A stretch of DNA of 64,000 nucleotides from Escherichia coli (GTDB taxonomy: Bacteria > Pseudomonadota > Gammaproteobacteria > Enterobacterales > Enterobacteriaceae): the NCBI RefSeq assembly GCF_030013595.1, contig NZ_CP122768.1. One strand, written 5' to 3'. Below are positions 1,598 to 17,445 of this stretch, one piece after another. Numbering within the stretch: the first letter of the stretch is position 1; each line of letters begins with the position of its first letter. The position numbers and the translations under genes are program-made. The notes below the pieces were generated by a model. It did no database searches and had not been told where the DNA came from. It saw nothing but the letters and a program-made list of their open reading frames with translations.

Positions 1598-2431
1598 TTA
1601 ATACTCACCGAAATCGATCCGGTCCGTCTTAGCCACTGCGCCAATTTCGGCTGGCGTAGGCTTCTCGTTTGTTGTATAGACTTTAATCCATTCCGATTTT
1701 CCGTTGTCCTGAATATTTCGTACCCGCAAACGTGGAGCACCGGAAGTATTACACGTTAATTGCCATGCGCCATGCTCATTAGCTTGAAGATGAATTAACG
1801 ATGTATCAGCACCATAAGGGTTAGTGCTAGCCGTTCCTTTGTAGGTTACAAAGCGGTTTCCTGTCAGAGATTCACTATCAATAGGTCCGGTGAATGGGCT
1901 AACGCCTGAGCCTACGCCAAAATCCCCTTGTCGGATGAGTTTTCCCTCGGTCGCTATACCCCTTGCTAGAATCCCGCCATCTGGTTCAAGTTTAAATTCC
2001 AGTGTTACAGCTTTGTTATCACTACCACGGGTTTTATGTGATGTGACGTAAGCATCGAATATACAAAAGTACCCTGTGTTAGCAGCACTATAGCCAGAGT
2101 TCACAACATAGAACATACGGAAGCGTAAAGGTGTTTTATCCTCTACCGCTTTCATCAACATTGCTTGATGTTCGTCATCCAGAACACGGTTTAACGTGAG
2201 TGTCGTCGGTTCCAGTCTACGATAACCAGCAAGTTTCCCCGTAGCGTCCTGATCGTACTCTTCCAGAGTTTCAATCTCTGTGGATTCTGTTAGCGTAGGG
2301 AATGCTGCGACGTTCTCAATAGAACTAAAGCTAGGATCGAAAAAGTCGACCTGATTGTCTAGCTGGTTAGAGATCGACACTTCAACATGCGATCCCGTAA
2401 AAATATCTAAGTTATCTTGTGTAATATTCAT
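1598..2431 (-). CDS. Virion structural protein, 277 aa (putative tail protein)
   Basis: ORF track; ATG with AAGGGG SD; terminator-like hairpin downstream; C-terminal motif KPTPAEIGA echoes KPTPGEIGA in the tail-fibre ORF. Confidence 0.45.
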   Translation of the reverse strand: MNITQDNLDIFTGSHVEVSISNQLDNQVDFFDPSFSSIENVAAFPTLTESTEIETLEEYDQDATGKLAGYRRLEPTTLTLNRVLDDEHQAMLMKAVEDKTPLRFRMFYVVNSGYSAANTGYFCIFDAYVTSHKTRGSDNKAVTLEFKLEPDGGILARGIATEGKLIRQGDFGVGSGVSPFTGPIDSESLTGNRFVTYKGTASTNPYGADTSLIHLQANEHGAWQLTCNTSGAPRLRVRNIQDNGKSEWIKVYTTNEKPTPAEIGAVAKTDRIDFGEY

Positions 2432-2440
2432 TATTACCCC

Positions 2441-2911
2441 TTAAAAACGCGCTAGATAAGAAAATTTAAGGCTAAGTGTCCCAACGATACCCCCATCACT
2501 AGAATCATCGTCATAATCGGTATTAGAAGCTACTGGAGTGATATCTGAAATTGAGAAGCCCAAATCTTTAAAACGTGGGTTATCCGGCTGAATCTGGATT
2601 ATCTGGCAAATACCCTCATGAATTTTGGTTTCATGAATCTGAGAATACAATTGCATTTCGATAACGCATTCAGCTTGCATTGCATTACCGCCACGGACCC
2701 TATTGTAAGTCTCATTCATTCCGGTGATCCAACAAACCACGTCATCACTAAAGCCTTGCTGAGTTTGTTCTACGTTTAAAGCCAGACCTAAATCTTGTTC
2801 GATAATATCCTGCAAGGCGCGTTTGATTTTCAGTCTAGGCATATTATTAACGGTAGCGAGCATGTGTACCCCCTGCCAGAGTGATAAAGCAATCAGTTGT
2901 ATTGTCACCAT
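2441..2911 (-). CDS. Hypothetical virion morphogenesis/neck protein (156 aa as tracked; more likely ~140 aa from ATG at 2863)
   Basis: ORF track; internal ATG at 2861-2863 has a GGGGG SD, first ATG has none; sits in the head-tail module. Confidence 0.4.
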   Translation of the reverse strand: MVTIQLIALSLWQGVHMLATVNNMPRLKIKRALQDIIEQDLGLALNVEQTQQGFSDDVVCWITGMNETYNRVRGGNAMQAECVIEMQLYSQIHETKIHEGICQIIQIQPDNPRFKDLGFSISDITPVASNTDYDDDSSDGGIVGTLSLKFSYLARF

Positions 2912-3137
2912 TGCGCTTAACGTATTGAACTTTGAAACGCTGATTTTCTACAGTGACAATATCACCCTGCTTTAAGTCTCCCTCACGACAAAATAGAAAT
3001 TCTGTCTCTGTCATTACCCCTGATTCGTCGGTAGTAGTAATTTCATGATAAGCACGAATTGATTTACCACCTTCCACCGAAAATACAGGAGCACTTCGGA
3101 ACATTCTTGATAATTGTGATTCTGATAATTTGAACAT
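2847..3137 (-). CDS. Putative head-tail adaptor/joining protein, 96 aa
   Basis: ORF track; AAGGGGG SD; size and position immediately after capsid gene. Confidence 0.35.
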   Translation of the reverse strand: MFKLSESQLSRMFRSAPVFSVEGGKSIRAYHEITTTDESGVMTETEFLFCREGDLKQGDIVTVENQRFKVQYVKRNGDNTTDCFITLAGGTHARYR

Positions 3138-3165
3138 AGTTACCCCCTTTATGGAGTATTTACAT

Positions 3166-3194
3166 ACAAAAAAGCCCCACCGTTAGGCAGGGCT
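3166..3194 (-). terminator. Rho-independent terminator/attenuator after capsid gene
   Basis: Minus-sense hairpin AGCCCTGCCTAACGGTGGGGCT followed by T-run; same hairpin family recurs at 9845-9872 and 16351-16380. Confidence 0.5.
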
Positions 3195-3212
3195 AATTAT
3201 TATTTTGCTTTC

Positions 3213-3232
3213 GGTGGACGTCCCACCTTTTT
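3213..3232 (+). terminator. Plus-strand hairpin plus T-run (antisense terminator)
   Basis: GGTGGACGTCCCACC followed by TTTTT inside a minus-strand operon. Confidence 0.35.
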
Positions 3233-3286
3233 AGCTGTGGCTTTCGCCGTAACTACCGGAATTTCTTCCGGCAATTCTTCGTTATT

Positions 3287-5293
3287 TCACTCTTCGCCAA
3301 TTTTCAGAACTTTCAGAGCTTCCGGCTGTGCTACAACGTAGTCCAAATCTACAAAGATACGAGGCACTACCGCACCACGGTCACGGTATGTAGTTAGATC
3401 CATATCCAGTTCCAGACCGCCCCACTCACCGATGGTAATACCGGAGAAGTCACCCAGAACGATGTGGTCTGCCGGAATAACGCCAGAAGTAACTACTTCG
3501 TAACCAGCCAGTTTGCCGTTTTCGATGATATAACCGGAAACGCCGTTATCTTTCAGGGTAGATTCCAGTTCGGCAGCAGTTGCACCGCTCATTGCAAACT
3601 TGATCGCCTGAGCAGGAACGCCAGCGTCGGTCAGTGCTGCAATTTCTTTCAGGAAGTCTTTATAAGAGAAAGCAGCTTTCTTGGTAACGCGGCTAGCGTC
3701 TACCAGTTGCTTAACCAGACCAGCCGGACCACGAGCATTTTCTTTATCAGACAGAATCAGTTGTTCCAGTTTGATACGAACAGCTTTGTTAATGTGATCA
3801 GTGATCAGGGTAGCGATGCCCGGAACGGTTTTCAGCGACTGACGGCTGATCGGGTTGCCACCAGCAAAAGTTTTCGGAGACAGTTTCACGTTCGCAAATT
3901 CAGCTTTGCTTTCCGGTGCAGCACCGTTTTCATCAACGAAGCCGAAAGCGTCAACGCTGGAAGCGGTCATTTTTGGAATAGCGGTCGGGGAGTTCAAGCC
4001 ACTGTAAACAGTCACACCCAGACGACCCAGACACGAAGCAGGAAGCAGCATTTCGATGTAGGATTCAGTCATCAGTTTTTCGTCAGTGATAGCGGTCAGG
4101 TCGGCTTTGGTGTTACCAGCAGAAGCAGCACGCAGAGCAGCAGCCGGAACGAATACAGAGCCACCACGAGCAGCACGACCACGCTGCATAGTTGCAGTAG
4201 CAGCCATTGCGGAATATTCAGCTTCGTTAGCGCCGAGCACGTCGCCATCTACCAGGGAGCGGATTACGTTATTAAGATCGAAAGTTTTTTCCATGATTTG
4301 TTCCTTATTAATTTGTTCGTTATTACGTTGAGCATTGGTAATGTTATTTAGTGCCTTAGTGCGGAATGCTTCCGGCGTCATGTCTTTAATTGCCAATGCG
4401 CGTGCTAATTCAGAGTCATCAATATTTAGTTCGCGTGCAATTTCGCGAATTTCTAATTCGTCTTCTTCGGAACGTTCAGCCACTTCCTCGGTTTTTTCTT
4501 CTTCAACCGGAGCGGCTTCACGTTCTTCTTTTACTTCTTCTGTTTCCCGAACAGTTGAACTATCATCATCAACACTTTCAGGATGTTCAGCGTCTTTTCC
4601 GTCTTCGAGATTTTCATCTTCTTTATTCTCTTCAACTTGGCGCTCTTGAGTTTCTTCAACTTCCGGTTCTTTATTTTCTTCTACCGGAGTTTCTTCAACC
4701 TGAGCGGCTTCTTGTTCTTCTTTGATTTCTTCGATTTGTTCTTTAGTCATATCGCGTTTAGCCCCCAAATTAACTGTGATAGTATTTAGAGAGCGATTTA
4801 AACCGACCGTATCGTCTGCGGGCACCGACACCCATGAAATCTCGTGAGGAATCCATTTAGAAACAATGAGTTGCGATTTAGCGTAGTCGATGTGATATTC
4901 TTTAATGTCATAACCGACAGAAATTTTTTCCATCGTACCTTCAATGACTTTATTGCGAATATCATTAGCCAAAGTGCCATGCTTAGAGAATCTAACGGTC
5001 GCACGGCCTACGTTATCCGCATCGATTCGAGCGTTACAAACGACACCAATGTGATTATCGAAATTGTGATTGAACAGCAACGGAGCGTTATTATTCAGAC
5101 GAGACAGATCAACCGCTTCCGGTGTATGTACCAGAATTTCATCTAATACCACCATTTCTTGATTTTGCTCATCCCAAAATTGGCGCTGATAAGGCTGTGT
5201 ACTTGAGAAAGCAATTTCAAATTCGTATTGATCGTTATGCCCTTCATTAATAACTCCACCGTAACCGTTAAGATCGCGGCGAAATTTAAGCAT
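3287..5293 (-). CDS. Prohead protease / scaffold-like acidic linker / major capsid protein fusion (HK97-like), 668 aa
   Basis: ORF track; N-terminal ~170 aa protease-like (LLFNHNFDNHIGVV), central Glu/Lys-rich repeat segment, C-terminal ~370 aa capsid-like; SD AAAGGTGA. Confidence 0.7.
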   Translation of the reverse strand: MLKFRRDLNGYGGVINEGHNDQYEFEIAFSSTQPYQRQFWDEQNQEMVVLDEILVHTPEAVDLSRLNNNAPLLFNHNFDNHIGVVCNARIDADNVGRATVRFSKHGTLANDIRNKVIEGTMEKISVGYDIKEYHIDYAKSQLIVSKWIPHEISWVSVPADDTVGLNRSLNTITVNLGAKRDMTKEQIEEIKEEQEAAQVEETPVEENKEPEVEETQERQVEENKEDENLEDGKDAEHPESVDDDSSTVRETEEVKEEREAAPVEEEKTEEVAERSEEDELEIREIARELNIDDSELARALAIKDMTPEAFRTKALNNITNAQRNNEQINKEQIMEKTFDLNNVIRSLVDGDVLGANEAEYSAMAATATMQRGRAARGGSVFVPAAALRAASAGNTKADLTAITDEKLMTESYIEMLLPASCLGRLGVTVYSGLNSPTAIPKMTASSVDAFGFVDENGAAPESKAEFANVKLSPKTFAGGNPISRQSLKTVPGIATLITDHINKAVRIKLEQLILSDKENARGPAGLVKQLVDASRVTKKAAFSYKDFLKEIAALTDAGVPAQAIKFAMSGATAAELESTLKDNGVSGYIIENGKLAGYEVVTSGVIPADHIVLGDFSGITIGEWGGLELDMDLTTYRDRGAVVPRIFVDLDYVVAQPEALKVLKIGEE

Positions 5294-5338
5294 TTAATCA
5301 CCTTTAATTAATTGGGGGCATTGCGCCCCCGTTGGTTA

Positions 5339-6850
5339 TTAGGGATCGGCTGGGGAATTTTTTTCTTCACCCTCGCCATCAACGATAATATTTAGTGCGC
5401 TCTTTTCGGCTTGAATCTCTGAGAATACTTTTTCAGGATCATCACCACGTTCAAGAATAACGGCAGTACGTGATTTAAGTCCTTTATCAATTAAAGCAAT
5501 CTCGGCGCTTACGTCTTTAAATGGATCGACGGATTCAAAACGAGGACGAATAATAGTAGTGTTGTCGATAATATGCGGAATTGCAGTAATACGAATCGGA
5601 ACAATACCACGCGCGGAATAATGGCGTAGATATGCTTCGAAAATTGGCAATACCACTGTTTCAATCAATTTGTTTTGCAGTGCTTTAACTCGTGTGCGCT
5701 GGGTTAATTCACCGAAACGTGCGGCTGAGTAGTTGATCTGGCTAGTATCACCAGTCAAGCCCTGTTTAAACACGCCTAAGCCCATTGATACGCTAGTAAA
5801 CATCGCATCATTGAAGCTGTTAAAGTCATCACCGCTTTGCGTCGCCTGGATGCTCTTGATCGTTGCCCCTTCCGGCAATTCCTGAATAGTACCCGGTGCA
5901 AAATCCTGTACTACTTCCGGCGCTTGATATTGTTCATCCTCTTCACCAGTATCAAAATCGTCACCAGAATCTTTCGGACGTTCGATAAAGCCCATAGAAC
6001 TAGCCGCAATACGTTTCTGGACGATCGCAGTTTCGCGGAATGCGTCTTGATGTGCGATATCCTTAATCACTGGCAGGAAATCAGTCACACCACGCAGGGA
6101 TTCAGACGCAAGTGGTTGATAATAATGGAATACTTGCGAAGCATCGACGCGATAGTTATCACCTGTGTAAGTCTGAGTCAGTAGGTTGATTTTACGAAAC
6201 CAATATGCAACAGGGCGCATTGTTTCTACGTCATACTCGATCCCCTGATAGATAGCACGTTCTTTGCTTATTTCACGGTTTAGCGACCAGTCGCACTTAT
6301 CAGCAGACAGGATGGAAACATTTAACTCATTGTTTTCTTTGGTTAAAACGATGAAGCACTCACCACCCATAACGCGCTCACGTTCAGCCATTACCAGCAG
6401 TTCACGGAAGTTAAAGCGACCGTTACGAGAGAAGCGTTTAGCGTTCTGCGCCCACTTCCAGAAAGCATTCTCGATCTGCTTATTCAGTGCGCTATCAAGT
6501 TTGCCATTTGATTTAACGATTGACGGCTTCGGATCTAGGCCAGTACCTACCACCATATCGGTGATGTATTGCGTGTAGCGACTGCCAACGGAAGTGTTTA
6601 AGGCCAGAGTACGACCCTGATCATAAAGGCGCTCACCGTTCGATTTGAGAGCCTTATTGAAGGTTCCTGTAATGGTGTCTTGTTGAAGTGATCCATCAAT
6701 ACGATCACCAACCAGTCCTAAACTACGAGTCGCCAGAGATTTCTGGTATCTTTCTATAGATTTGTCGATGAAAATTTTTGGTTGTTGCTGGCGGTGATTA
6801 GTTTTAACTGGAGTTTCTACCGCCTTTTTGCGTCGAAAAAGATTAAACAT
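5339..6850 (-). CDS. Portal protein, 503 aa (family not determined)
   Basis: ORF track; size and position between terminase and protease-capsid gene; acidic C-terminus; AAGGGG SD. Confidence 0.6.
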   Translation of the reverse strand: MFNLFRRKKAVETPVKTNHRQQQPKIFIDKSIERYQKSLATRSLGLVGDRIDGSLQQDTITGTFNKALKSNGERLYDQGRTLALNTSVGSRYTQYITDMVVGTGLDPKPSIVKSNGKLDSALNKQIENAFWKWAQNAKRFSRNGRFNFRELLVMAERERVMGGECFIVLTKENNELNVSILSADKCDWSLNREISKERAIYQGIEYDVETMRPVAYWFRKINLLTQTYTGDNYRVDASQVFHYYQPLASESLRGVTDFLPVIKDIAHQDAFRETAIVQKRIAASSMGFIERPKDSGDDFDTGEEDEQYQAPEVVQDFAPGTIQELPEGATIKSIQATQSGDDFNSFNDAMFTSVSMGLGVFKQGLTGDTSQINYSAARFGELTQRTRVKALQNKLIETVVLPIFEAYLRHYSARGIVPIRITAIPHIIDNTTIIRPRFESVDPFKDVSAEIALIDKGLKSRTAVILERGDDPEKVFSEIQAEKSALNIIVDGEGEEKNSPADP

Positions 6851-6860
6851 GATTTACCCC

Positions 6861-7355
6861 TTATCGCGTAAGACGTAATTTGATATTTTTAATCGGACTA
6901 ATTCCCTGTTTACGTCGTTCGGCTTGAATTAATTTAGATAACTGACGTTCATAATCAGTCTTCAATTGCTGGAGAACACCCAATGACTCATAGGCGAAAG
7001 TATTCCCTTTCACGGTCATTTGAGATAATGCGGCTTCGTCCCCAGATAGCCTGGCGAAAATAACTTGCTCGATTACAGAAATCGTTTCGCGCAGATGTTC
7101 TTTTTTGGATTGTTTGGCGAATACTGGCAAAACAGTTAATTCCTGCATTGATACCAGTTCTTCATCAAGAGTAATAACAATGGTCATCTTCCCTTCTGGA
7201 AAGTCTAACGTTTTAATCTCGTGATTTTCCGGTGCATCATCGACCTGATAGACAATGCCTTTGCTATTACCTACCTGAATTGTTACACCCTCTTCATTCG
7301 CAAGCGTGACTTTTTCGCCTTTACGAATTACTAAGGGAATTAGTTCTAAACTCAT
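6861..7355 (-). CDS. Hypothetical head protein, 164 aa (occupies the gpW-like position between terL and portal)
   Basis: ORF track; AAGGGG SD; tightly spaced with neighbours. Confidence 0.35.
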   Translation of the reverse strand: MSLELIPLVIRKGEKVTLANEEGVTIQVGNSKGIVYQVDDAPENHEIKTLDFPEGKMTIVITLDEELVSMQELTVLPVFAKQSKKEHLRETISVIEQVIFARLSGDEAALSQMTVKGNTFAYESLGVLQQLKTDYERQLSKLIQAERRKQGISPIKNIKLRLTR

Positions 7356-7427
7356 AATTACCCCTTATTTAATTGTTATTGGATTAACAATATTTAGGAG
7401 TAAGCCGCCCCGAAGGACGGCGAGTTA

Positions 7428-9332
7428 TTAGAACGATGTTACCCAGCTACGGCCTCTATTTGGGCGTCTGACGATGTTTTGACGTTGTGGTCGTGTGATT
7501 GGCTTAGTTTCTTCGATTTGCTCGTCAGATTGCGATTTAGGAGCTTCTACAGGTTCTTCTGGTTCACGGTTCAAACTATCTTTGATGGCTTCGAGTTTTT
7601 CCCATGACATTTTATTGAGTACATGACGAGAAGCAGCATAGGAATAAGCCAGGCAGTCCAACGCTTCGTTTCGTGTTTGTCCAACTTTTACCCAACGTGT
7701 GGTATTACCCTGCCGTTTCAACTGTTCAGAAAGCAATTGCTCGCAATAGTCATCAGGAACGTCACCAATCTGGAAGACAGTGTGAGGATCGCCATCTCTC
7801 AAGTTCCGGTTAATCATTTCACGGATCATCGTTTTAAGGTTGTTTACGCCCAGAATTTTAAGGGTAAAACCACCCGTTCTTGTGTCTTTTACCGGAAGGA
7901 TTGGTGCATCAACATTGCTTGCGCCTTTAATGGCGGTTAGATTTTGCCACCGACTACAGAATCGATAGATCACGTTTGTAGCTCGTCCGTTCGATGAGTC
8001 CACGAAAGCAGATAACATCGGGATTCGTTCACCGGATCGGGTATAGAATTTAGCTTTCAGGAAGTTGTAAAGCTGGTTATATGCTGGTGATTCGTGGCGT
8101 TCGCAGTTCACATCATAGAATGATCGGTGATCAACTACGCATAGCCCTTTACGAGAAATACCCAGCAAGGTAGATTCCAGACGGTCTTTTTGCTGGTCAA
8201 CTCCACCTACCAGAGCCAGTACATCATCAGGAATATTGTCTAGGCTAATATCAGTTTTCAGCGTTTCTAATTCGTCGGCTGTGCGGTCTTCGTTAAGATC
8301 ATCGAAGGTTTCACCGAGGACTGTATTGTAGAACGTTGCCAGGGACATATTCGCGTAGCTATCAGCAAAGTCCACCACACACGCACGGATAGAACTAAAC
8401 GGAGACATAAGGCGGTTAGCATGAAAACCGATTACTTCCGCGTTTGGTTCGGTGGCGACCCATTCTCCCTGTCCAACAGCACGTAGGCGATCACCCTCGG
8501 TCCAATCGGTTTCACATTCAGGGCAACGGTAAACGGCTGTATCTGGGTTGGGTAATGATTTACCGTTAATCGTATGCCAATCGAAATGTACGTTACTCCA
8601 TTCCATTACGTGCTTGTGTCCGCAATGCTGGCAAACGACATGATATTTTCTCTTATCCGAGAGTTCCCATTGTTGGTTAATCGCCCCATCACGAGCGGTT
8701 GGAGTGGAAGCAATTACGATCCTTGCATCTTCCCCGAAAGTGGTTGCGCGTTGTTCCGCTAGTTGGATCGGGTTCCCTTCGTCTGACTCATCAGCCGCAT
8801 CAACTTCATCAAGAATAATCAAAGGGAGTGTTTTACCGCGAAGATGTGACGGACTATTCAACGACATGAAATACATAAACGATCCGTTACGAAGCTGAAT
8901 AATCGATGAGTTGTTAACGGCATTGCGATCTGATTTGTCGGTGATCATCGCCTTTAATTCTGGTGTTGCCTCTAATACTGGCTTCACCTTACCAGCGATC
9001 CAAGAATTTAGTTCTCTAACGTTACTTTGCAACACCCCAATATTAGTAGGGTTACTCGCGATCCGATGGAAGATAATTCCGTTAAGAATCATGGTCTTAC
9101 CCAACTGTGCCGAACATTTAAACACAATTTTTCTACGGTCTTCGGTGATCGCGTCCATCATTCCACGTTGGAAGGGATGCAATTTAATTAGCGATCCGGC
9201 TTTAACACCATCGGTTGCAACTACATTAGCCTCTACCCATTCGCTAGGTTTCATCGTTTTAGGTGGGCGAATTGCCGCAGAGATATTTTTAAGAATCTTT
9301 TTTAATTTTGCCTTGTTCGAAATCAGTTTCAT
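7428..9332 (-). CDS. Terminase large subunit, lambda GpA family, 634 aa
   Basis: ORF track; recalled lambda gpA similarity: ..HPFQRGMMDAI.. near N-terminus, Walker-A-like KCSAQLGKT, C-terminal RNEALDCLAYSYAA matching gpA RNEALDCFVYALAA. Confidence 0.85.
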   Translation of the reverse strand: MKLISNKAKLKKILKNISAAIRPPKTMKPSEWVEANVVATDGVKAGSLIKLHPFQRGMMDAITEDRRKIVFKCSAQLGKTMILNGIIFHRIASNPTNIGVLQSNVRELNSWIAGKVKPVLEATPELKAMITDKSDRNAVNNSSIIQLRNGSFMYFMSLNSPSHLRGKTLPLIILDEVDAADESDEGNPIQLAEQRATTFGEDARIVIASTPTARDGAINQQWELSDKRKYHVVCQHCGHKHVMEWSNVHFDWHTINGKSLPNPDTAVYRCPECETDWTEGDRLRAVGQGEWVATEPNAEVIGFHANRLMSPFSSIRACVVDFADSYANMSLATFYNTVLGETFDDLNEDRTADELETLKTDISLDNIPDDVLALVGGVDQQKDRLESTLLGISRKGLCVVDHRSFYDVNCERHESPAYNQLYNFLKAKFYTRSGERIPMLSAFVDSSNGRATNVIYRFCSRWQNLTAIKGASNVDAPILPVKDTRTGGFTLKILGVNNLKTMIREMINRNLRDGDPHTVFQIGDVPDDYCEQLLSEQLKRQGNTTRWVKVGQTRNEALDCLAYSYAASRHVLNKMSWEKLEAIKDSLNREPEEPVEAPKSQSDEQIEETKPITRPQRQNIVRRPNRGRSWVTSF

Positions 9333-9423
9333 GTAATTACCCTCATTACGAAATATGAAGGTATTTATTAAATTGTTGATATTTTGATAAATATGGGTAT
9401 TAAGGCAGAGTTCTTTATGTCGG

Positions 9424-9453
9424 TTGACGATGGAGAACTTTTTCCGATAAAAT
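9424..9453 (+). promoter_or_regulatory. Candidate sigma70 promoter for the 77-aa gene
   Basis: TTGACG, ~17 bp spacer, ATAAAA/TAAAAT about 45 bp upstream of the start codon. Confidence 0.4.
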
Positions 9454-9498
9454 GTAAGTCCTCTAAATAAAGGTGAACATTCACTTTAATTTGGAGAA

Positions 9499-9732
9499 AT
9501 GACTATGACTACTAAAGCTACTCGCGGTCGCCCTGCCCGTTATACTCGTGAACAGATGGCTGATATTGCCTACGCTTACTATACAGCGGATCGCGGGAAG
9601 GAAGCGAAAGAACAGATTCTTAGTGAACATGGGATTTCAGTAGCCCAATTCTATAAGAATATGAAGAAGTTAGACATTAAATTCTATGTTCAGATCGATG
9701 ACGGTCAGATCGTAGAAGCAACAGGTTTTTGA
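9499..9732 (+). CDS. Small putative DNA-binding protein, 77 aa (paralog of 13446..13628)
   Basis: ORF track; N-terminal RGRPARYTRE motif shared with the second small protein (ARPVKFTRE); own promoter and terminator. Confidence 0.45.
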   Translation: MTMTTKATRGRPARYTREQMADIAYAYYTADRGKEAKEQILSEHGISVAQFYKNMKKLDIKFYVQIDDGQIVEATGF

Positions 9733-9740
9733 TTCTCTTT

Positions 9741-9764
9741 GCCACTCTTCGGAGTGGCTTTTTT
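9741..9764 (+). terminator. Rho-independent terminator of the 77-aa gene
   Basis: GCCACTCTTCGGAGTGGC followed by TTTTTT. Confidence 0.6.
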
Positions 9765-9792
9765 GTATCTAAGTTATTGATTTTCTCGAACT

Positions 9793-9835
9793 TCACAATT
9801 TGTGGGAGTCGGGAAACATCCACAATTTGTGGGAG
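9793..9835. repeat. Two direct copies of CACAATTTGTGGGAGT (27-bp period), each with an 11-bp palindromic core CACAA-T-TTGTG
   Basis: Read directly; lies between two convergent terminators. Confidence 0.6.
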
Positions 9836-9844
9836 TTGGATAGT

Positions 9845-9872
9845 AAAAAGCCCCACCATTACGGCAGGGCTT
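9845..9872 (-). terminator. Rho-independent terminator of the 183-aa gene
   Basis: Minus-sense AGCCCTGCCGTAATGGTGGGGCT followed by TTTTT. Confidence 0.55.
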
Positions 9873-9876
9873 CTAA

Positions 9877-10428
9877 TCAGATTCCGAAGATGTCACATAG
9901 GTCGGCTGTGTGGCGTTCTTGTTTTGAATAGTAAATCCGTTCAGCTTCATATAACGTGATAGAATCATCATTAACGACGGTTTCAAACTCCCCTTCTATT
10001 ACCCTTTCTGTGTGCGCTTTACTGCGTAATTCGGCCTCTTCCATGCGATATAAGCCAATACAGATACTACCATATACACCATATTTTTTCTCGTCGAGAT
10101 GGCGACGACCTTTGCGTTGTTCGAACGGAAGATCGTAAGCGGTTATCTTTTTGCGGCGAACTCGATCATATCCACTCTCTTTGGCATCAATCATCATACT
10201 AATCAACATCCCACATTTAACAAGGGATTCAAGGCACTGACGAATAGAATTAGTTCTTGATTGTTTTAATTCTGGGTTAGGATCGTAATATGGATTATCT
10301 ATCCATGATTCATGAATAAGGAAATGTACGTCATCAGCCGTTAAAGGCCAACCACCAACACTTTCAACATCGGTCTTAGTACAATCAAACAGATCCAGAA
10401 TGAATTTCTTTTTGTGCGTCATTTTCAT
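9877..10428 (-). CDS. Hypothetical protein, 183 aa
   Basis: ORF track; last gene of a four-gene minus-strand operon; no family recognised. Confidence 0.45.
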   Translation of the reverse strand: MKMTHKKKFILDLFDCTKTDVESVGGWPLTADDVHFLIHESWIDNPYYDPNPELKQSRTNSIRQCLESLVKCGMLISMMIDAKESGYDRVRRKKITAYDLPFEQRKGRRHLDEKKYGVYGSICIGLYRMEEAELRSKAHTERVIEGEFETVVNDDSITLYEAERIYYSKQERHTADLCDIFGI

Positions 10429-10523
10429 AATGTTCTATCCTCAAAATACTTAAAAAGTACCATGCCGATTTTCGCGGCATGGTCAAAAAATCACCATACA
10501 CCCAATGGGCGTTTGGTTAAAAA

Positions 10524-11363
10524 TTAGATACCAAAGACAGCAAGTGATCCGGCGTTCTTACGAATCAATGCGGCGGTATTATTAACGATTGCACGAGCAT
10601 TGTTAGGCTGCGGTAATTTCAAAGTTGCTATCGTCTCTTCCTCAATCAAGCCCAATTCAACCAGCACTGGTAAACAGTCAGTTGTGAACTCAAGCTGACC
10701 ATGTGCTGATTGTCGGGCATACATGTAAGCAGGAGGAAGAACATCATAGCCACAAGGCTTACCAGAAGCATCCAGACGGCGCTCAATGTGTTTAGCCTCA
10801 CACAATCCCTTAAGAATACGTTGTACCTTCGTAGAGCCTCGTTTTTCGCCCAATAAGCGGGTTAAGCTGTGCCCGTCAATGGCACGGCGAACATGAAGAT
10901 CAATTAATTGTTCTTTTTCTTCCGCTAAAGTCAGAGCCTTACGAATCCAATCAACTTCGGTCATCTTGCTTGCGTCTGGGAAAGCGTTATTCTTTAATTC
11001 TTCATTTTCTTTCTTCAAACGCTGCCATTCATCAACCAGCATTGCGGTATAAACCGGATCGGTCTGTGCGATAACAATGTAGCTATCACGTTCAGTCAGA
11101 AGATAAACTTCAATTGGTTTGCCTTTACGGCCTAAACGGTCAGTTTTTGACCAAAACGCCACTGGCGGTTTGGTTACAATTTGAGCTTCAACCAGACGAT
11201 CAACCGTTCTCATAATATCGGTGTGACGGTTTTCACGCCCCATTAGTTCAGCAATACGCCAGGTAGAAATTGATAATTCTTTCTCTACAGAGTCATTTGC
11301 AGCAGTCAGGTCAACAGAAGAAGCAGTTTTAACAGCAGTATTCATAGTAGTAACAGTATTCAT
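10524..11363 (-). CDS. Rha-family phage regulatory protein (antirepressor-like), 279 aa
   Basis: ORF track; N-terminal ..STWRIAELMGRENRHTDIMRTVDRL.. resembles the Rha-domain pattern (recalled); C-terminal domain unrecognised. Confidence 0.5.
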   Translation of the reverse strand: MNTVTTMNTAVKTASSVDLTAANDSVEKELSISTWRIAELMGRENRHTDIMRTVDRLVEAQIVTKPPVAFWSKTDRLGRKGKPIEVYLLTERDSYIVIAQTDPVYTAMLVDEWQRLKKENEELKNNAFPDASKMTEVDWIRKALTLAEEKEQLIDLHVRRAIDGHSLTRLLGEKRGSTKVQRILKGLCEAKHIERRLDASGKPCGYDVLPPAYMYARQSAHGQLEFTTDCLPVLVELGLIEEETIATLKLPQPNNARAIVNNTAALIRKNAGSLAVFGI

Positions 11364-11451
11364 AGTAGTAATTCCCCTTTCGGTTTAGTGATATTGATCC
11401 TCCTAGTTCCGGCATCACCACCGGAACATTTTTATTTATGATAGAAATTTA

Positions 11452-11784
11452 TTACCAATCGATTTCTACTTGGTCTTCTTCATAATAAGGAATCGCATAT
11501 TCATAACGCCAATTTTCGATGATTTCACGTTCTTCATTAGTAAGAAGGTGATTGTTAACTGGAGTCGCATTGTGATTACCAGCTTCGAATTGCTCGCGAA
11601 CTTCCAGCATTGCATGAATACCAGTTAAGGACATCAGATCAAACGGAACATGCATACTACGGGAGATTGTTTCACGGGATACGCCCCAATCATTTTCTAC
11701 ATGGCTAGGGGTTACAGAAACGGTTTTGCCGGAGATTTTAACAGTCCAGTCATACAGGGATTTAGTGATGGTAAATTCTTTCAT
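11452..11784 (-). CDS. Hypothetical protein, 110 aa
   Basis: ORF track; directly downstream of a consensus promoter. Confidence 0.4.
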   Translation of the reverse strand: MKEFTITKSLYDWTVKISGKTVSVTPSHVENDWGVSRETISRSMHVPFDLMSLTGIHAMLEVREQFEAGNHNATPVNNHLLTNEEREIIENWRYEYAIPYYEEDQVEIDW

Positions 11785-11825
11785 GTTACATCCTCTTTAC
11801 AAATCTAGGTCAAATAGGTTCAAAG

Positions 11826-11883
11826 TTGTCAAGTGCGATAATCATAAAAAAGTTTGAAGATATTGTCAAATACCACTTGACAA
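11826..11883 (-). promoter_or_regulatory. Consensus sigma70 promoter (TTGACA-17-TATGAT, minus strand) bracketed by a 10-bp inverted repeat TTGTCAAGTG / CACTTGACAA
   Basis: -35 at plus 11864-11869, -10 at plus 11841-11846; inverted-repeat arms at 11826-11835 and 11874-11883. Confidence 0.5.
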
Positions 11884-11905
11884 GACACCAAAGGGTTGAC
11901 CTAAC

Positions 11906-12094
11906 TTACAGCATATCTAAGCCTTCATCGTAACCGTAGAAGCCATTCTGAGAAGAGAAGCAGATTGGTGCGTAGTCGTCGTCATCTTCGTCTTGTTCAT
12001 CTTGTTCTGGGGCTTCCTGAGCGGTTTCTTTGCCGTAGTTAAACATGGCTTCATCCAGTTCATAGTGGAAATCCTCTAAAAGAAAGTGAATCAA
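11906..12094 (-). CDS. Small strongly acidic protein (62 aa from TTG; 46 aa from internal ATG); frame uncertain
   Basis: ORF track (TTG start); acidic run EAPEQDEQDEDDDDY; an alternative overlapping frame has the better SD. Confidence 0.25.
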   Translation of the reverse strand: MIHFLLEDFHYELDEAMFNYGKETAQEAPEQDEQDEDDDDYAPICFSSQNGFYGYDEGLDML

Positions 12095-12700
12095 TCTAAT
12101 ATTATTTATAAAGAGAAAATTCTTGTTATTATGAAAGGAGTGATCTGGTAGAGTCCAAAACTGGTCTGTACTTGAAAGGTGATTGGATTCAGTCGGGCAA
12201 AGCCCTCCTTCATGTTTTGATTAAATCATCATCAAAACGAAGAAGTATCTTTAGAATATAAGATCTTTCTTTTGGAGAAATAATAATCAGGAAGCAATTT
12301 GGCAACCGAAGGTTGCAATCCCGAAGGGATAACCAATACCTTTCTAGAAAGTGATTGTTACTCACTTCGTTCGTTTACTAGAATCAGTTATCATCTGGTA
12401 TTAAATCCCTTTCTAAGAAAATCCTTTCAAAAGTGATTCTCGATGCCACGCAGTGGCGTCGCAGACGTTTGGGAGTGAGCGAAGCGAGCGAGCAAACTAG
12501 TTAATTCCTTCTAAGACCATCTAGTATCATCTAGTTTAAATTAGTTGTTACTAGAAGCAATTGGTTGGCGCTTCGCGCAGTCGGGCTAAAGCCCTCCTAA
12601 TTATCTTTTTGGTTATTTGTTGTTTTTAGTTTTACACATGAGCGTAGCGAATGTGTTATATAATATCTATGCACGCCCAATCCCCCGCTTTTTCCCCTCA
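12095..12700. other. ~600 bp hairpin-dense non-coding region (candidate structured RNA or DNA-level origin/packaging signals)
   Basis: No ORF; many short-loop hairpins (GCAACC-GAA-GGTTGC, ATCCC-GAA-GGGAT, GCCAC-GCA-GTGGC, GCGC-TTC-GCGC); CTAG-rich; ~20-bp direct repeats CAGTCGGGC(T)AAAGCCCTCCT at ~12190-12209 and ~12578-12598. Confidence 0.5.
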
Positions 12701-12743
12701 CTAAGTTAATGTTTTATAAAGAGTTTTTCTCACCAATCCTTTT

Positions 12744-12931
12744 CGGGGGCAAATTTCAGGGGCAAAAATTAGATTTTCAGGGGCAAAAATAGTGGGTTTC
12801 AGGGGCAAAAATGAGGGGCAAAATCACTGTTTCCCAGAATTTCAGGGGCAAAAATAGTGGGTTTCAGGGGCAAAAATGGGATGTGGAATCTAGGGGATTT
12901 TGGTTCAGGGGCAAAATTCAGGGGCAATTTT
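12744..12931 (+). repeat. Iteron array: 9 copies of (TTCA)GGGGCAAAAAT, including an exact 38-bp duplication
   Basis: Read directly; copies at ~12746, 12759, 12780, 12802, 12815, 12845, 12867, 12908, 12921; 38-mer TTCAGGGGCAAAAATAGTGGGTTTCAGGGGCAAAAATG at 12777 and 12841. Confidence 0.85.
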
Positions 12932-12968
12932 CATAGTGTAGGGCTAGTGTAGGTTTGAAAATCCTTTG

Positions 12969-13025
12969 TTGACACTGTGTAGGATCGGTGGTATACTTGA
13001 AAATTCGAGATAAATATGTTATAAT
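12969..13025 (+). promoter_or_regulatory. Tandem near-consensus sigma70 promoters next to the iterons
   Basis: P1 TTGACA (12969-12974), 17 bp, TATACT (12992-12997); P2 TTGAAA (12997-13002), 17 bp, TGtTATAAT (13017-13025). Confidence 0.55.
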
Positions 13026-13171
13026 ATTTGTATTGAAAGTGAAAATTTACCGATTTTCCTTCCTATTGTTATCACCGTGTTAAATTGTTATATGTCTGTG
13101 AAGATTTGGATCTGAGAGAAAATCTTGTAACAAATCTTTACAATTCATAGCTCAATTAATGCTCACCGCTT

Positions 13172-13310
13172 TAGCAAAAAGTGCTATGCCTTTTTCTAAA
13201 TTGATTGAATATACATCAATTTGGTTAAATCGTGTTCTTCGCTTTAGCAATTCGTGCTGTGGTTTAACACATTTAACACGTCTGATAACATCTGAATAAC
13301 ATTTTAACAT
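13172..13310 (+). promoter_or_regulatory. Operator-like palindromes and phased TAACAY repeats upstream of the 60-aa gene
   Basis: TAGCAaaaagTGCTA (13172-13186) and TAGCAattcgTGCTg (13245-13259); five TAACAC/TAACAT copies at ~10-11 bp spacing in 13264-13310. Confidence 0.45.
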
Positions 13311-13445
13311 ATCTCTGTTATAAATACATATATAAGAGATAAATGTGAGGGGTTGAAAAATAAAATACAATCCCATATAAATAATAGTGAGCGGTTAACG
13401 CTCTTTTTTAAGAAATCATTAATCCACATTGTAGGAGGATTCGAG

Positions 13446-13628
13446 ATGGCACGACCTGTTAAGTTCACTCGCGAAATCATCTTAGAAATGGCTAAACGCT
13501 ACTTTGAGTTAACGCCGGGTGTGAGAATTGAAGAGTGGTTTAAAAATGAGGGCATCGATAAATCAACCTTTCATAAACTGCTAAAACGATATGACATTAA
13601 AGTGAAGATTGAAGCTACCGTTTGGTAA
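13446..13628 (+). CDS. Small putative DNA-binding protein, 60 aa (paralog of 9499..9732)
   Basis: ATG with AGGAGGA SD inside tracked ORF 13353..13628 (which begins at TTG); MARPVKFTRE motif. Confidence 0.5.
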   Translation: MARPVKFTREIILEMAKRYFELTPGVRIEEWFKNEGIDKSTFHKLLKRYDIKVKIEATVW

Positions 13629-13742
13629 TCAACTTTGACTGAGAATTATATGATGGCTTTAAAAAAGAAAAAGCCTCCTTTGCTGCAACAAGGGAGGCTT
13701 GAAATGAACAATTAAAACTAACTTTCCATAGGAGTATTTATA

Positions 13743-14684
13743 ATGTTATTTTCCGCTAACTTTTTCACTAACGAAGTAACCAACGCTAAAGCAGTTATCA
13801 AATTTGGCACCGAAGCAAACAAGAAGATTCAGCCGAAAGTTGTTGCTCATGTTTCCTTTGCGCAGCAGAAATCCGCTTTCGCTGGCTTTAAAGCACATCG
13901 TGAAGCACTGATCGCGGCTGGCTTTGGTGTTGACGGTAAACTGCCTAACGGCATTCGTAAAGCAATCGACCGCGTTAAACCAGTTAAAGACGTTGCAGTA
14001 GACCACATCGTTACTTTTACCGTTAAGAACTCTTCTGAACTGTTCCACCTGGTTATTGCTGGTGATACTGCTATCGTTTCCGCTCCTAACATGGATTTTC
14101 AGGATACCGCTGATTGCCAGATCACCTTCGGTCGTCGTAAAGAAGTTACCGGAAAAGCTAAACTGAACTTCACTAAATCCGGCAATCCTTACTTTGCTGT
14201 ATTCTTTAACAGCCACGCTACCGAAAAAGAAGTTGTAGAACTGGTTGCTTATGAAGGTGAAGAGAAAGAACGTATTGAATCTTGCGAAGCATTTCTGGAA
14301 CTGGAAGCACAGGTGAATGCTGTTTCTCCGGTTGTTGAAGATCGCTTTGCTGCACTGGAAGCACAGATCGCAGAACTGAAAGCTGCACTGGAAGAAAAAG
14401 ACCAGATTATCGAAGCACAGAAAGCTGAGATTGAAGAACTGAAAGCTAAAGAAGTTGCTCCGGTGGCAGTAGTTGAAAACGCGGCTGATGAGGCCGCAAA
14501 TGATGAAGTAGAAGTGAAAATCGATGTGATGCGTGATCCGATGGCTGCACTGCAATTACTTCGTTCTTTTAAGGGCAAATCTCATTTTTCTAGTGATGTA
14601 GAAGATGAGGAAGAAGAACAGAAACGCAATGCTGCAATGCTTCATGATGAAATGTACGGTACTAACTTTTCTTACTGCCAATAA
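13743..14684 (+). CDS. Hypothetical protein, 313 aa: unrecognised N-terminal domain, coiled-coil, acidic C-terminal tail
   Basis: ORF track; AGGAG SD; heptad-like ALEAQIAELKAALEEKDQIIEAQKAEIEELKAKE; no NTPase or nuclease motif seen. Confidence 0.5.
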   Translation: MLFSANFFTNEVTNAKAVIKFGTEANKKIQPKVVAHVSFAQQKSAFAGFKAHREALIAAGFGVDGKLPNGIRKAIDRVKPVKDVAVDHIVTFTVKNSSELFHLVIAGDTAIVSAPNMDFQDTADCQITFGRRKEVTGKAKLNFTKSGNPYFAVFFNSHATEKEVVELVAYEGEEKERIESCEAFLELEAQVNAVSPVVEDRFAALEAQIAELKAALEEKDQIIEAQKAEIEELKAKEVAPVAVVENAADEAANDEVEVKIDVMRDPMAALQLLRSFKGKSHFSSDVEDEEEEQKRNAAMLHDEMYGTNFSYCQ

Positions 14685-14707
14685 AAAAAGGGACTCCGAA
14701 GAGTCCC
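14684..14707. terminator. Terminator hairpin (A-run/hairpin; works for minus-sense transcripts, possibly bidirectional)
   Basis: AAAAAA then GGGACTCCGAAGAGTCCC immediately after the 313-aa stop. Confidence 0.5.
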
Positions 14708-14780
14708 TAGTAAGTTTAGGTTAGGTTTGCACAACAAAGATGAGGTTATAATGAATATAATGCTACATTATTCTTTAAAG

Positions 14781-14811
14781 CCAGAAAAATAACCGCCCCC
14801 TTCGGGGCGGG
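14781..14811 (-). terminator. Second minus-sense terminator hairpin
   Basis: CCGCCCCCTTCGGGGCGG with T-rich tract on the minus sense; ~100 bp from the previous hairpin. Confidence 0.4.
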
Positions 14812-14968
14812 AGGATTAATACTCAATCTATACTTGTTATGTTTTTATGTTGTATAGTCACTGACTATGAAAACACTGTACTGAATGTGTTTTATGGCTT
14901 TTAATCGGGAACTCTCTTTCGAAAATTCCCTGTTAAAACCACATAAGGAGAAAAGGCAGATTACAATA

Positions 14969-15253
14969 TTATTTAGTCTGTTTGAAAACGAACGTTAAAA
15001 ATTCGATTAAGCAATATACCCAAAGTACGGTCAGCATCAAATGCATAGCAATAGTTGGATGGAAGTTAAAAAGTGTCATACTAACTAGGCCAACAATATA
15101 AGAAATTCCTTCGACAATTAACGCAAGGCTAGCAAATGCAACAAACGCACCTAAGAATAATTCGCCTCGTTCTTTCGGTTCGGTTCCGAGTTTATAAGCA
15201 GAGATAGCAGCCAGAATAGTAATGATGACAGCATAGGTAATAAAAGTAGCCAT
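14969..15253 (-). CDS. Small membrane protein, 94 aa (three predicted TM helices)
   Basis: ORF track; AAGAGGA SD; hydrophobic segments separated by charged loops. Confidence 0.5.
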   Translation of the reverse strand: MATFITYAVIITILAAISAYKLGTEPKERGELFLGAFVAFASLALIVEGISYIVGLVSMTLFNFHPTIAMHLMLTVLWVYCLIEFLTFVFKQTK

Positions 15254-15269
15254 AGTTTTATATCCTCTT

Positions 15270-15298
15270 AAAAGTTAAGCGGGGGATGTTCTCCCCCG
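15270..15298 (-). terminator. Terminator after the terS-like gene
   Basis: Hairpin CGGGGGATGTTCTCCCCCG with T-rich minus-sense tail. Confidence 0.45.
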
Positions 15299-15345
15299 TA
15301 GACGTTGACCATCAACATCTTTCATACATTTATTTATAACGCGTT

Positions 15346-15903
15346 TTAAGACACATCAAATTCATCGTCTTCTTCTGGTTCTTGTTCTTCCGGTTCATCC
15401 ATTAATGGTAATTCTTCTTCCTCGTCTTCTCCCAAATCTGCATTTTCGAACAAGTCCCCTACTTCATTTAAACGACGCTCGATGATCTCCCTTAGCTTAT
15501 TCTTTAATGTTTTCTGGTCATTGGCAGATTCGAGAATTTCTAGGGCATCGATCGTACAAATCTGCAAAATAGTCTGCTTCACTTTCCCGCAATATTCCGC
15601 TAGTTGCTGTTCTACATAACCGACAGGAATCAGGAGGTTCATTTTTTCCTGATTCTCTCGTTCGGCTGCATCTGCCATTGCTCTTTCTCTGCGGAGACGT
15701 TCTTGATCAATCGCTTCTTTGATTGAAGTTTGTTTAAGTGGGTTAATTACGTTCTTTAGCACCCAATCGCAACCTTCCTTTGCCGGAACACGCCTCTTAT
15801 TGGTATTGTAAGGTAGTCCCCTTTCTAACCATCGCTTACCGCCACCATTCAATGTATAGCCATATAAACGGGAAATTTCTGTAAGGGTTAATTCTTCTTT
15901 CAT
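15346..15903 (-). CDS. Nu1-like small terminase subunit candidate (winged-HTH protein with acidic C-terminus), 185 aa
   Basis: ORF track; strong GGAGGA SD; GGGK and W.ERGLP motifs loosely like lambda Nu1 (recalled); first gene inside the element boundary. Confidence 0.4.
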   Translation of the reverse strand: MKEELTLTEISRLYGYTLNGGGKRWLERGLPYNTNKRRVPAKEGCDWVLKNVINPLKQTSIKEAIDQERLRRERAMADAAERENQEKMNLLIPVGYVEQQLAEYCGKVKQTILQICTIDALEILESANDQKTLKNKLREIIERRLNEVGDLFENADLGEDEEEELPLMDEPEEQEPEEDDEFDVS

Positions 15904-16350
15904 TGGTTATCCTCCATTAAATTTGCGTAATTTTATTTATTGGTTTTACGCAAAATCTAAGCGCCTAAATCGCATTCTAACGAAGGGAAAGATCCAGTAA
16001 TGGTAAGGGCTAGGAAGTGGGTTAATAGTCGCGTAGCGACCGCGCTAGGACTGCACTGATCACGTTTTAAAATCTCACACGCACATCAAAAACCGGGGTG
16101 CCGAAAACTCGCTTTATCTGACCCCGATCCAGAACCTAAATCATTTGTCAAGTCTTTCCGATTCAGTAAAGGGGAACATGCATCTAAGCTAGAGAAGCTC
16201 ATAAAGACTAAGTATGAATGCGGTGTTGTTAGTCGGGATGATATGCGAGACGGTTACACTGAAACGCTACCATTTGAAGCATTGCCGGAGATCATCACTA
16301 TCACCAACAAAATGATAAGCGAAAGCATCCTCGTAAGTAATTGATTCCTA

Positions 16351-16380
16351 AGCCCTGTCCTTGTGATGGGGCTTTTTTAT
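16351..16380 (+). terminator. Hairpin plus T-run at the element edge (third member of the AGCCCTG...GGGGCTTTTT family)
   Basis: AGCCCTGTCCTTGTGATGGGGCT followed by TTTTTT. Confidence 0.45.
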
Positions 16381-16394
16381 TGGAAAAATTTTAG

Positions 16395-16724
16395 TTATTG
16401 GGGTTTACAACATTTAGGTTTGCCAATTCGTCTGGCTAACTCTTGCTGAGTGATTTCTGACTGTAAAAAAGCATTTAACAGCAATACCTTAGAGGCGACA
16501 CTCAAAGGCACTTCAATAAAGTGATCGTGACTATTTAATGGCGAAGGTAACGGGATAAGCTCGTTATCTTCAAAATAAAAATCAAATGCGGTCAGTAAAG
16601 CATCTTTTGCCGCTTCCATCGCTTCAGCAACTGTTTCGCCCTGGGTCAACGCTTCAGGGATATCCACAAAAGAAACCATATAACCGCCTTCCGGCGCGGG
16701 TGTAAGAGTGACGGGATAACGCAT
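16395..16724 (-). CDS. hicB: HicB antitoxin, C-terminally truncated at the element junction
   Basis: Matches recalled K-12 HicB from MRYPVTLTPAPEGGYMV.. through ..ARRIGKPK, then 5 non-native codons (CCKPQ) and a stop; C-terminal DNA-binding domain missing. Confidence 0.7.
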   Translation of the reverse strand: MRYPVTLTPAPEGGYMVSFVDIPEALTQGETVAEAMEAAKDALLTAFDFYFEDNELIPLPSPLNSHDHFIEVPLSVASKVLLLNAFLQSEITQQELARRIGKPKCCKPQ

Positions 16725-16769
16725 AATTTCGACTGTCTCTCGCATGTCATTAACCTTTTTAATTGGCGA

Positions 16770-16946
16770 TTAACTCAAACCGAGTTGCTTCAGGATTGCT
16801 TTACGCAATGGTTCTTTAATCTCATCGCAGGGGTGACGCGGCATGACACTGCGCCTCCCGTGAAACCTGAGTTTTAAATGGTTGCTGCCATTCGCTACAT
16901 CGACGCCCTGAGATTCGAGCCAACGTCTGAACTCGCTTTGTTTCAC
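16770..16946 (-). CDS. hicA: HicA mRNA-interferase toxin, 58 aa, GTG start
   Basis: Hand translation VKQSEFRRWLESQGVDVANGSNHLKLRFHGRRSVMPRHPCDEIKEPLRKAILKQLGLS; below the ORF-track size cut-off. Confidence 0.7.
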   Translation of the reverse strand: MKQSEFRRWLESQGVDVANGSNHLKLRFHGRRSVMPRHPCDEIKEPLRKAILKQLGLS

Positions 16947-17167
16947 ATCGCCTCCCTGCCGCTGAGTATATCAACAAAGTAAACATTAGTGTTTACCTCC
17001 GTGTGTAATTTGCTCGAAAATAGCACTAAATCGCCGCAACGGCAGAATGCAATGCAAAATCAGGAAGGAAGATTCCAGAATTTCTTTGCGCTAATTTGCA
17101 AAACTGAATAATAACCTCAAGAAACTATCGGCATCATAGCGGCAAAAGGTGAGAAAAAGGTGGCGGG

Positions 17168-17398
17168 ATGTTTACGAAGGCGTTATCGGTTGTCTTATTA
17201 ACGTGTGCGCTGTTCTCAGGACAACTCATGGCAGGGCACAAAGGACATGAATTTATGTGGGTAAAGAATGTGGATCATCAGCTACGTCATGAAGCGGACA
17301 GCGATGAATTGCGTGCCGTGGCGGAAGAGTCGGCGGAAGGTTTGCGCGAGCATTTTTACTGGCAAAAATCGCGCAAACCAGAAGCGGGACAACGTTGA
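17168..17398 (+). CDS. yncJ: Small secreted protein YncJ, 76 aa
   Basis: ORF track; signal peptide; K-12 position between hicA and ydcP. Confidence 0.6.
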   Translation: MFTKALSVVLLTCALFSGQLMAGHKGHEFMWVKNVDHQLRHEADSDELRAVAEESAEGLREHFYWQKSRKPEAGQR

Positions 17399-17404
17399 GT
17401 CATT

Positions 17405-17445
17405 TATTGCCGGATGCGGCGTGACGCCTTACCCGGCCAACAATA
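17405..17445. repeat. REP element
   Basis: GCCGGATGCGGCGTGACGCCTTACCCGGCC palindromic unit in an intergenic region. Confidence 0.5.

Follow-up and report, generated by a model that had tools for sequence, protein, structure and literature searches.

We found three hairpins of one family in a 64,000-nucleotide stretch of Escherichia coli DNA (contig NZ_CP122768.1; this whole stretch is called the window), all of them within the prophage sequence that the window contains. Very likely, these hairpins are Rho-independent terminators of one and the same prophage, whose resemblance goes back to copying within the prophage and not to a special function in common. A terminator hairpin that is reused and related by duplication is real but ordinary. 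It means that terminators are copied and swapped as small cassettes in this prophage lineage, which aids the annotation of operon ends and mosaic joints. Positions 1 to approximately 16412 of the window represent the right-hand part of the prophage, and the remainder is E. coli chromosome (hicA, yncJ, rlhA, sutR onward). The element is a temperate, siphovirus-like prophage of about 36 kb with a serine recombinase, integrated in the 3′ end of hicB; its whole length was seen in strain MEI003, where it is bounded by two hicB fragments and encodes the large serine recombinase at the far end. In total, 53 E. coli genomes carry the element. Chromosomal homology begins only at approximately 16413 in most genomes compared, which marks the right prophage end, and therefore all three hairpins are prophage DNA, including the one next to hicB.

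The motif AGCCCTG-N(9-14)-GGGGCT has exactly three matches in the window, namely at 3173-3194 (minus strand), 9849-9871 (minus strand) and 16351-16373 (plus strand), and did not occur in any of 100 dinucleotide-preserving shuffles of the window. Each match is immediately followed on its 3′ side by a run of five to six T on the hairpin strand, the U-tracts lying at 3166-3172, 9845-9848 and 16374-16379. The original prediction had reported this motif with near-identical stems and a T-run at the three sites, as the pattern search and the shuffles confirm; the spacer between AGCCCTG and GGGGCT, described there as 11 or 12 nucleotides, measures 9, 10 and 10 nt. Specifically, the family comprises copy 1 (3166..3194, minus; hairpin 3173-3194; AGCCCTGCC-TAAC-GGTGGGGCT plus U-tract), copy 2 (9845..9872, minus; hairpin 9849-9871; AGCCCTGCC-GTAAT-GGTGGGGCT plus U-tract) and copy 3 (16350..16380, plus; hairpin 16351-16373; AGCCCTGTC-CTTGT-GATGGGGCT plus U-tract), with TAAC, GTAAT and CTTGT as the respective loops. 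The consensus AGCCCTG(C/T)C-loop-G(G/A)TGGGGCT with its T-run gives a stem of 9 bp in the order A-U, G-C, C-G, C-G, C-G, U.G, G.U, C-G or U-A, and C-G. The tandem U.G/G.U occupies stem positions 6-7, and position 8 is C-G in copies 1 and 2 and U-A in copy 3, where both sides have changed. Structure, strand, position, conservation and interchangeability of the hairpins are all direct observations.

The three copies have the anatomy of Rho-independent terminators. Their stems are G+C-rich and 9-10 bp long (5-14 bp being the range for such terminators) with short loops of 4-5 nt, the U-tract abuts the 3′ side of the stem in all three, and each copy lies in non-coding DNA, on the same strand as the preceding coding region and 2-6 nt past its stop codon. 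Energies predicted with ViennaRNA for the T-run strand were −15.5, −17.9 and −13.7 kcal/mol for copies 1, 2 and 3, compared to −11.6, −11.3 and −9.9 kcal/mol for the opposite strand, on which the wobble pairs become C.A mismatches. The 9-bp G+C-rich stem would form in the nascent RNA of the T-run strand, where the stem together with the weak rU:dA hybrid would release the RNA polymerase, and the same hairpin would protect the 3′ end of the upstream mRNA. Since the tandem U.G/G.U pairs weaken the hairpin on the opposite strand, each copy should act in one direction only. A covariance-model scan of positions 1-17500 with Rfam 15 (E<=1) gave no match at any of the three hairpin sites. An interspersed repeat of the host (REP/BIME, ERIC or MITE-like) was also considered and rejected, because no copy was present in the 47.6 kb of chromosome in the window or in the chromosomal flanks of the relatives.

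The similarity between the copies goes beyond that of other terminators. Among terminator-like hairpins from about 1.3 Mb of retrieved loci, 99 non-family hairpins with 8-bp stems provided 4851 pairs for comparison, of which 0.16% were identical in 7/8 stem pairs and none (0/4851) in 8/8. A position-specific pair model gave a probability of approximately 3e-6 for the family stem. These two figures speak against a similarity no better than that of GC-rich terminators in general, the outcome on which the original prediction would have been given up. In addition, a covariance model built from ten family sequences scored family members at 44-53 bits and all other terminators in the window and in six related loci at 23 bits or below, and it recovered exactly three members in the window, all of them prophage sequence, whereas the 47.6 kb of chromosome gave none. 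The comparison across phages came out differently. The same stem was found in at least 120 unrelated and very diverse viral contigs of IMG/VR (G+C 0.32-0.66), mostly with a T-run following, but a control stem with the tandem wobble moved by one position likewise occurred in at least 120 IMG/VR contigs. The recurrence of the stem across phages is therefore generic, and a special hairpin family widespread among phages was rejected, as the control stem reaches the same number of contigs.

Copy 1 was found in every relative examined. It is located 2 nt past the TAA TAA that closes an in-frame extension of the prohead protease-major capsid fusion gene (3287..5293, minus, TGA at 3287-3289; 668 aa; phrog_617, 7.6e-90; PF05065 and PF04586). 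The next late gene (2847..3137, minus; weak head-tail attachment-like match) starts about 30 nt further on, and its expression requires read-through of copy 1, because no promoter-like site was found between the two. A fourth copy, AGCCCTGCC-TTAAT-GGTGGGGCT, is encoded in MEI003, PSJ-22 and 14EC007 (identity to the window around copy 1: 99.6%), where the major tail protein gene (phrog_158, 1.9e-21) lies before it and the genes for a gp38-type adhesin, the tail chaperone and the tape measure come after it. For the genome of the window, the corresponding position is just left of base 1 and thus outside the window. Copies 1 and 4 are both placed inside the late operon, 20-30 nt before the next gene and without an intervening promoter; they would therefore have to be leaky attenuators or 3′ stabilisers, so that the two most abundant virion proteins would be made in greater amounts than the products of the downstream genes.

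Copies 2 and 3 are associated with variable genes. Copy 2 was present only in the window and in MEI003, and the other relatives examined have different hairpins at this site. It lies 5 nt past the stop codon of an ORF of 183 aa (9877..10428, minus; no function assigned) and opposite a convergent terminator at 9741-9764 (plus), against which it would close a leftward accessory operon. The ORF belongs to a variable segment (9773-10520) that is absent from most relatives. A truncated cargo ORF (stop at 16342-16344) ends 6 nt before copy 3, which itself is separated by about 40 bp, on the prophage side, from the junction between prophage and hicB. The open frame in question (16111..16344, plus) has no start codon and looks like the remnant of a cargo gene, since a near-identical relative has an annotated GIY-YIG nuclease gene here. 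The cargo gene before copy 3 differs among relatives (LprI-family, GIY-YIG or other), and at this end of the prophage copy 3 would close the variable slot for cargo (moron) genes and insulate the att/hicB region. Two other roles were considered for copy 3. A native hicB terminator was rejected, given that chromosomal homology starts from approximately 16413 and that the hicB strand shows C.A mismatches and has no T-run. An arm of the serine-recombinase attP would be expected within about 25 bp of the crossover and to keep dyad symmetry in the DNA. The hairpin lies 40-60 bp from the first chromosomal base, which is only an approximation to the crossover, and the substitutions in copy 3 keep wobble pairing in RNA and not a DNA palindrome.

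The relationship between the copies extends beyond the hairpins. Copies 1 and 4 are homologous over approximately 90-125 nt from the annotated stop codon to the hairpin, with a shared start of TGA-A[A/C]T-AAC-G[A/T]A-GAA and 24 identical nucleotides (GTTACGGCGAAAGCCACAGCTAAA) near the end, which suggests that these two were duplicated within a larger module of TGA, in-frame extension, TAA and hairpin. Copies 2 and 3 are 82-96% identical to copies 1 and 4 over 27-51 nt; against copy 4 in particular, the identity is 94% over 33 nt for copy 2 and 82-86% over 36-51 nt for copy 3. The homology of the flanks and of the adjoining module, together with the aligned copies themselves, supports the duplication that the original prediction had favoured over independent origins. 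Conservation in relatives, which it proposed to check, differs by copy: copy 1 is present in all relatives examined, and unrelated hairpins occupy the sites of copies 2 and 4 in some.

Where the copies differ, the differences follow the rules of pairing. The 5′ arm of copy 3 reads AGCCTTGTC or AGCCTTATC in relatives, with C to U opposite G and G to A opposite U, and these changes preserve pairing only in the RNA of the T-run strand. In one relative copy 1 reads GGCGGGGCT, where G.U has become G-C. Stem pairing was kept in 100% of 90 cells of the alignment, the number of independent events being small, and the pairing-preserving changes comprised C-G to U-A (both sides), C-G to U.G, G.U to A-U and G.U to G-C. 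Six loops were found across the variants (TAAC, TTAAC, TTAAT, TTAT, TTTATC and GTTATT). Furthermore, the hairpins are interchangeable with others. At the position of copy 2, sister prophages encode the unrelated terminators GCCCGGCGC-ATAATT-GCGCTGGGC or GCCCCTGA-ATT-TCAGGGGC, and at the position of copy 4 the unrelated AGCCATCC-TTCG-GGGTGGCT; the number of family copies per prophage ranges from one to four among the relatives.

Terminator reuse appears to be a general habit of this prophage lineage, since it extends to a second family, whose loop is UUCG. This second family is represented by GCCACTC-TTCG-GAGTGGC and AGGGACTC-TTCG-GAGTCCCT, in the window at 9741-9764 (plus) and 14684-14708 (minus), which are 90% complementary over 21 nt. 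The hairpin that follows the tail protein gene in prophages without copy 4 is a relative of this family (L123 26523-26552, L124 26118-26147, L126 18906-18935 in three of the related loci).

Homology to relatives breaks near the hairpins, at 9772 and 9891 for copy 2 and at 16158/16334 for copy 3, copy 4 is located at the joint with the T-even-type gp38 adhesin module, and the UUCG family is distributed similarly. This would be expected if the copies acted mainly as DNA, that is, as short linker sequences at module boundaries which promote homologous recombination and mosaicism, with termination being secondary. We regard this as improbable, since mosaic joints are expected in intergenic DNA regardless, the shared stretches are short (22-33 bp), and the substitutions described above for C opposite G and G opposite U keep an RNA hairpin on one strand and not the identity of the DNA.

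Slightly less probable again is a stem that is specifically recognised by a factor of the phage (for instance an antiterminator, RNA-binding regulator or endoribonuclease), which would coordinate all copies. The original prediction had pointed in this direction by suggesting a shared processing or protein-binding role. Such a role would agree with the invariance of the copy 1 stem, tandem U.G/G.U included, across many relatives, and the late genes past copies 1 and 4 need a means to pass the terminator. However, a sequence-specific recognition site for RNA (nut/put-like, or for a nuclease) should have the same sequence and the same loop or bulge at orthologous positions, and what was found at the sites of copies 2 and 4 in sister prophages with the same late genes were unrelated hairpins. 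Loops are hypervariable, substitutions obey pairing rules rather than sequence identity, copies vary in number from one to four, no Rfam family matched, and the control stem was as recurrent in IMG/VR as the family stem; the suggested role is therefore not supported. Three unrelated GC-rich terminators that converged by chance on one stem are the least probable explanation: stems of this type do arise repeatedly, as the family and control stems with their T-runs in unrelated viral contigs illustrate, but the chance of this happening within 16 kb is tiny given the pair comparison and the stem model, and independent origin is already largely refuted by a likeness that reaches into the flanks and, for copies 1 and 4, covers some 100 nt of the adjacent coding sequence as well.

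Three points weigh against the view that the hairpins are simply duplicated terminators. Termination, its efficiency and its leakiness are deduced from anatomy, and any order of the duplications would be deduced as well. The genes past copies 1 and 4 need read-through, which calls for either leaky termination or an antiterminator, and none of the latter was identified. Over 30 distinct relatives share the copy 1 stem, tandem wobble included, without any change other than the one of G.U to G-C, while its loop has often changed, and this could hide an additional sequence-specific constraint; conservation around copy 1 is, however, high throughout, from where the extension ends up to the next gene.

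Comparable terminators are known from other phages. Morons of lambdoid prophages reportedly are cassettes of promoter, gene and terminator located at prophage ends (Juhala et al. 2000). Copy 3 resembles their terminators in that it follows a variable cargo gene at the prophage end beside the attachment site, but it stays with the integration module when the cargo gene is a different one, and the terminators of the late operon are its paralogues. In phage T7 the intrinsic terminator T-phi is located after the capsid gene 10A/10B. As in the prophage, this is a G+C-rich hairpin with U-tract directly after a major capsid gene with a minor C-terminally extended form (a candidate form in the prophage), and it lies inside a late transcription unit in which partial read-through is needed. 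The prophage differs in reusing its hairpin three to four times per genome. A further difference is that the prophage extension is in frame behind a UGA whereas 10A/10B of T7 arises by a −1 frameshift (PMC5009743).

The cassette of TGA, extension and terminator is more interesting than the hairpins themselves. The capsid gene ends in ...KIGEE-TGA, which is followed in frame by 28 codons and a double stop (NNEELPEEIPVVTAKATAKKVGRPPKAK-TAA-TAA), two bases before copy 1 (extension at 3197..3286, minus; codons 3203-3286, TAA TAA 3197-3202). This extension is part of the module that was duplicated along with the hairpin. In the relatives, the tail protein gene ends in ...FTAG-TGA, followed by TNEELPEPEPQPEHEAVVIPEVEEVTAKATAKRSRKAKD-TAA five bases before copy 4; these tail-tube extensions (for example L002 5366-5488 and L125 26191-26313, both plus) stand behind a TGA-A and are homologous to the capsid extension at 3197-3289 (minus). 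Scanning IMG/VR with the conserved core and adding the relatives gave 35 distinct variants. In all of them (35/35) the TGA is followed by A, so that a conserved UGA with a fixed 3′ context is present throughout. All 35 are likewise in frame with a capsid ORF of 647-691 aa (shorter where the locus cuts the gene) or a tail ORF of 162-166 aa, and in each case 28-44 open codons (at least five length classes among the variants) lead to a TAA and the hairpin. The downstream frame has hence remained open and in register despite divergence and indels, and the other two frames of the region are full of stops. The extensions consist of an acidic/proline-rich part, then VTAKATAK, and then a basic tail. 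Tail-tube alleles without extension end in TAA and are followed by a different terminator.

A UGA followed by A is reportedly a leaky context in E. coli (Engelberg-Kulka 1981). Taken together, the TGA-A and the open extensions suggest programmed UGA readthrough that would give minor extended forms of the capsid and tail proteins. We consider it somewhat probable that a portable cassette, composed of a leaky TGA-A, an acidic-then-basic extension, TAA and terminator, was copied between capsid and tail genes and that a small fraction of both proteins is tailed in this way. Peptides across the read-through stop would be ...IGEE-W-NNEELPEEIPVVTAK for the capsid and ...FTAG-W-TNEELPE... for the tail tube. 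The pN/pS of the extension, 0.16-0.86, is weak evidence, and the set of upstream codons for comparison was unreliable through misalignment. A protein search with a 42-aa extension against a collection of 5.8 billion sequences returned none that contains the extension, no sense codon in place of the TGA and no annotation. No close sequenced phage was found; the closest by capsid, DCP80 (43% identity), has a capsid gene that ends in TAA without an in-frame extension, therefore the extension is not general to this capsid family. A tRNA scan for a suppressor tRNA gave one call by ARAGORN, a 91-nt tRNA-Gln (ttg) at 2586-2676 (plus) that lies inside and antisense to ORF 2441-2911 and is probably a false positive. 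Small perfect hairpins were also seen within the extensions. The one in the window is CCGGAA-GAAA-TTCCGG at 3256-3271 (minus), which starts 16 nt after the TGA, and the long type of extension carries CTTCCCCC-GATTT-GGGGGAAG starting 22 nt after the TGA (e.g. L123, approximately 20340-20362). Both are probably too far downstream to stimulate readthrough.

The literature searched does not describe readthrough for any structural gene of a tailed dsDNA phage; frameshifting is the known route there. Frameshift-derived extensions of capsid and tail proteins have been described for T7, T3, A2, PSA, A118 and A500; in the Listeria phages PSA, A118 and A500, both the capsid and the major tail genes are recoded by +1 or −1 frameshifting (PMC5009743). 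The prophage would resemble these Listeria phages if, as proposed, recoding at the 3′ end lets both its capsid gene and its major tail gene make an additional product with a longer C-terminus. It differs in having an in-frame UGA in both genes and extensions that are homologous to each other. According to a passage in PMC4207609 that cites Weiner and Weber (1971), the A1 protein of Q-beta results from natural readthrough of the coat-protein UGA. The candidate in the prophage would share with it the low-frequency readthrough of a leaky UGA that closes a coat gene, giving a minor extended capsid subunit, but Q-beta is an RNA phage with an extension of about 200 aa, and the prophage represents a tailed dsDNA phage with short, disordered, acidic-then-basic tails on two virion proteins. 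If the extensions are translated, a dsDNA phage would have its own equivalent of Q-beta A1 and of the capsid and tail extensions that T7, T3 and Listeria phages make by frameshifting, and E. coli would gain a further testable case of programmed readthrough.

Several other features of the region were noted. hicB (16395..16745, minus) has its last codons (16395-16412) supplied by the prophage and homology to the chromosome from approximately 16413, and insertion in its 3′ end gives the antitoxin a replacement of its C-terminal codons. A sister prophage with the same structural genes is located in ycdX instead and has no copy 3 (related locus L125, 6724-7128). The distal tail fibre gene at positions 1-794 of the window is 94% identical to the gp37 region of the T4-like phage ELT4, and a T-even-type gp38 adhesin follows copy 4 in relatives. 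These likenesses indicate that virulent T-even phages and the temperate prophage have exchanged host-range modules.

Copy 2 and the terminator convergent with it flank two direct repeats of CACAATTTGTGGGAGT(C/T)GG at 9794-9812 and 9821-9839, 27 bp apart, each of which contains the palindrome CCACAA-A-TTGTGG. More copies occur in relatives (L001 14876-14925, L123 12362-12387), and the repeats look like possible operators or binding sites. Further along, an array of about nine TTTCAGGGGCAAAAAT-like units with a spacing of 11-22 bp was found at 12742-12940, beside two sigma-70 promoter-like sites with 11/12 matches at 12969-13025. The array resembles iterons and may be a replication origin or control region. 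On the chromosomal side, the yncJ-rlhA intergenic region contains a sub-threshold Rfam match to naRNA4 at 17399-17438 (minus; 30.9 bits versus a gathering score of 59.5), which is probably a REP-type element.

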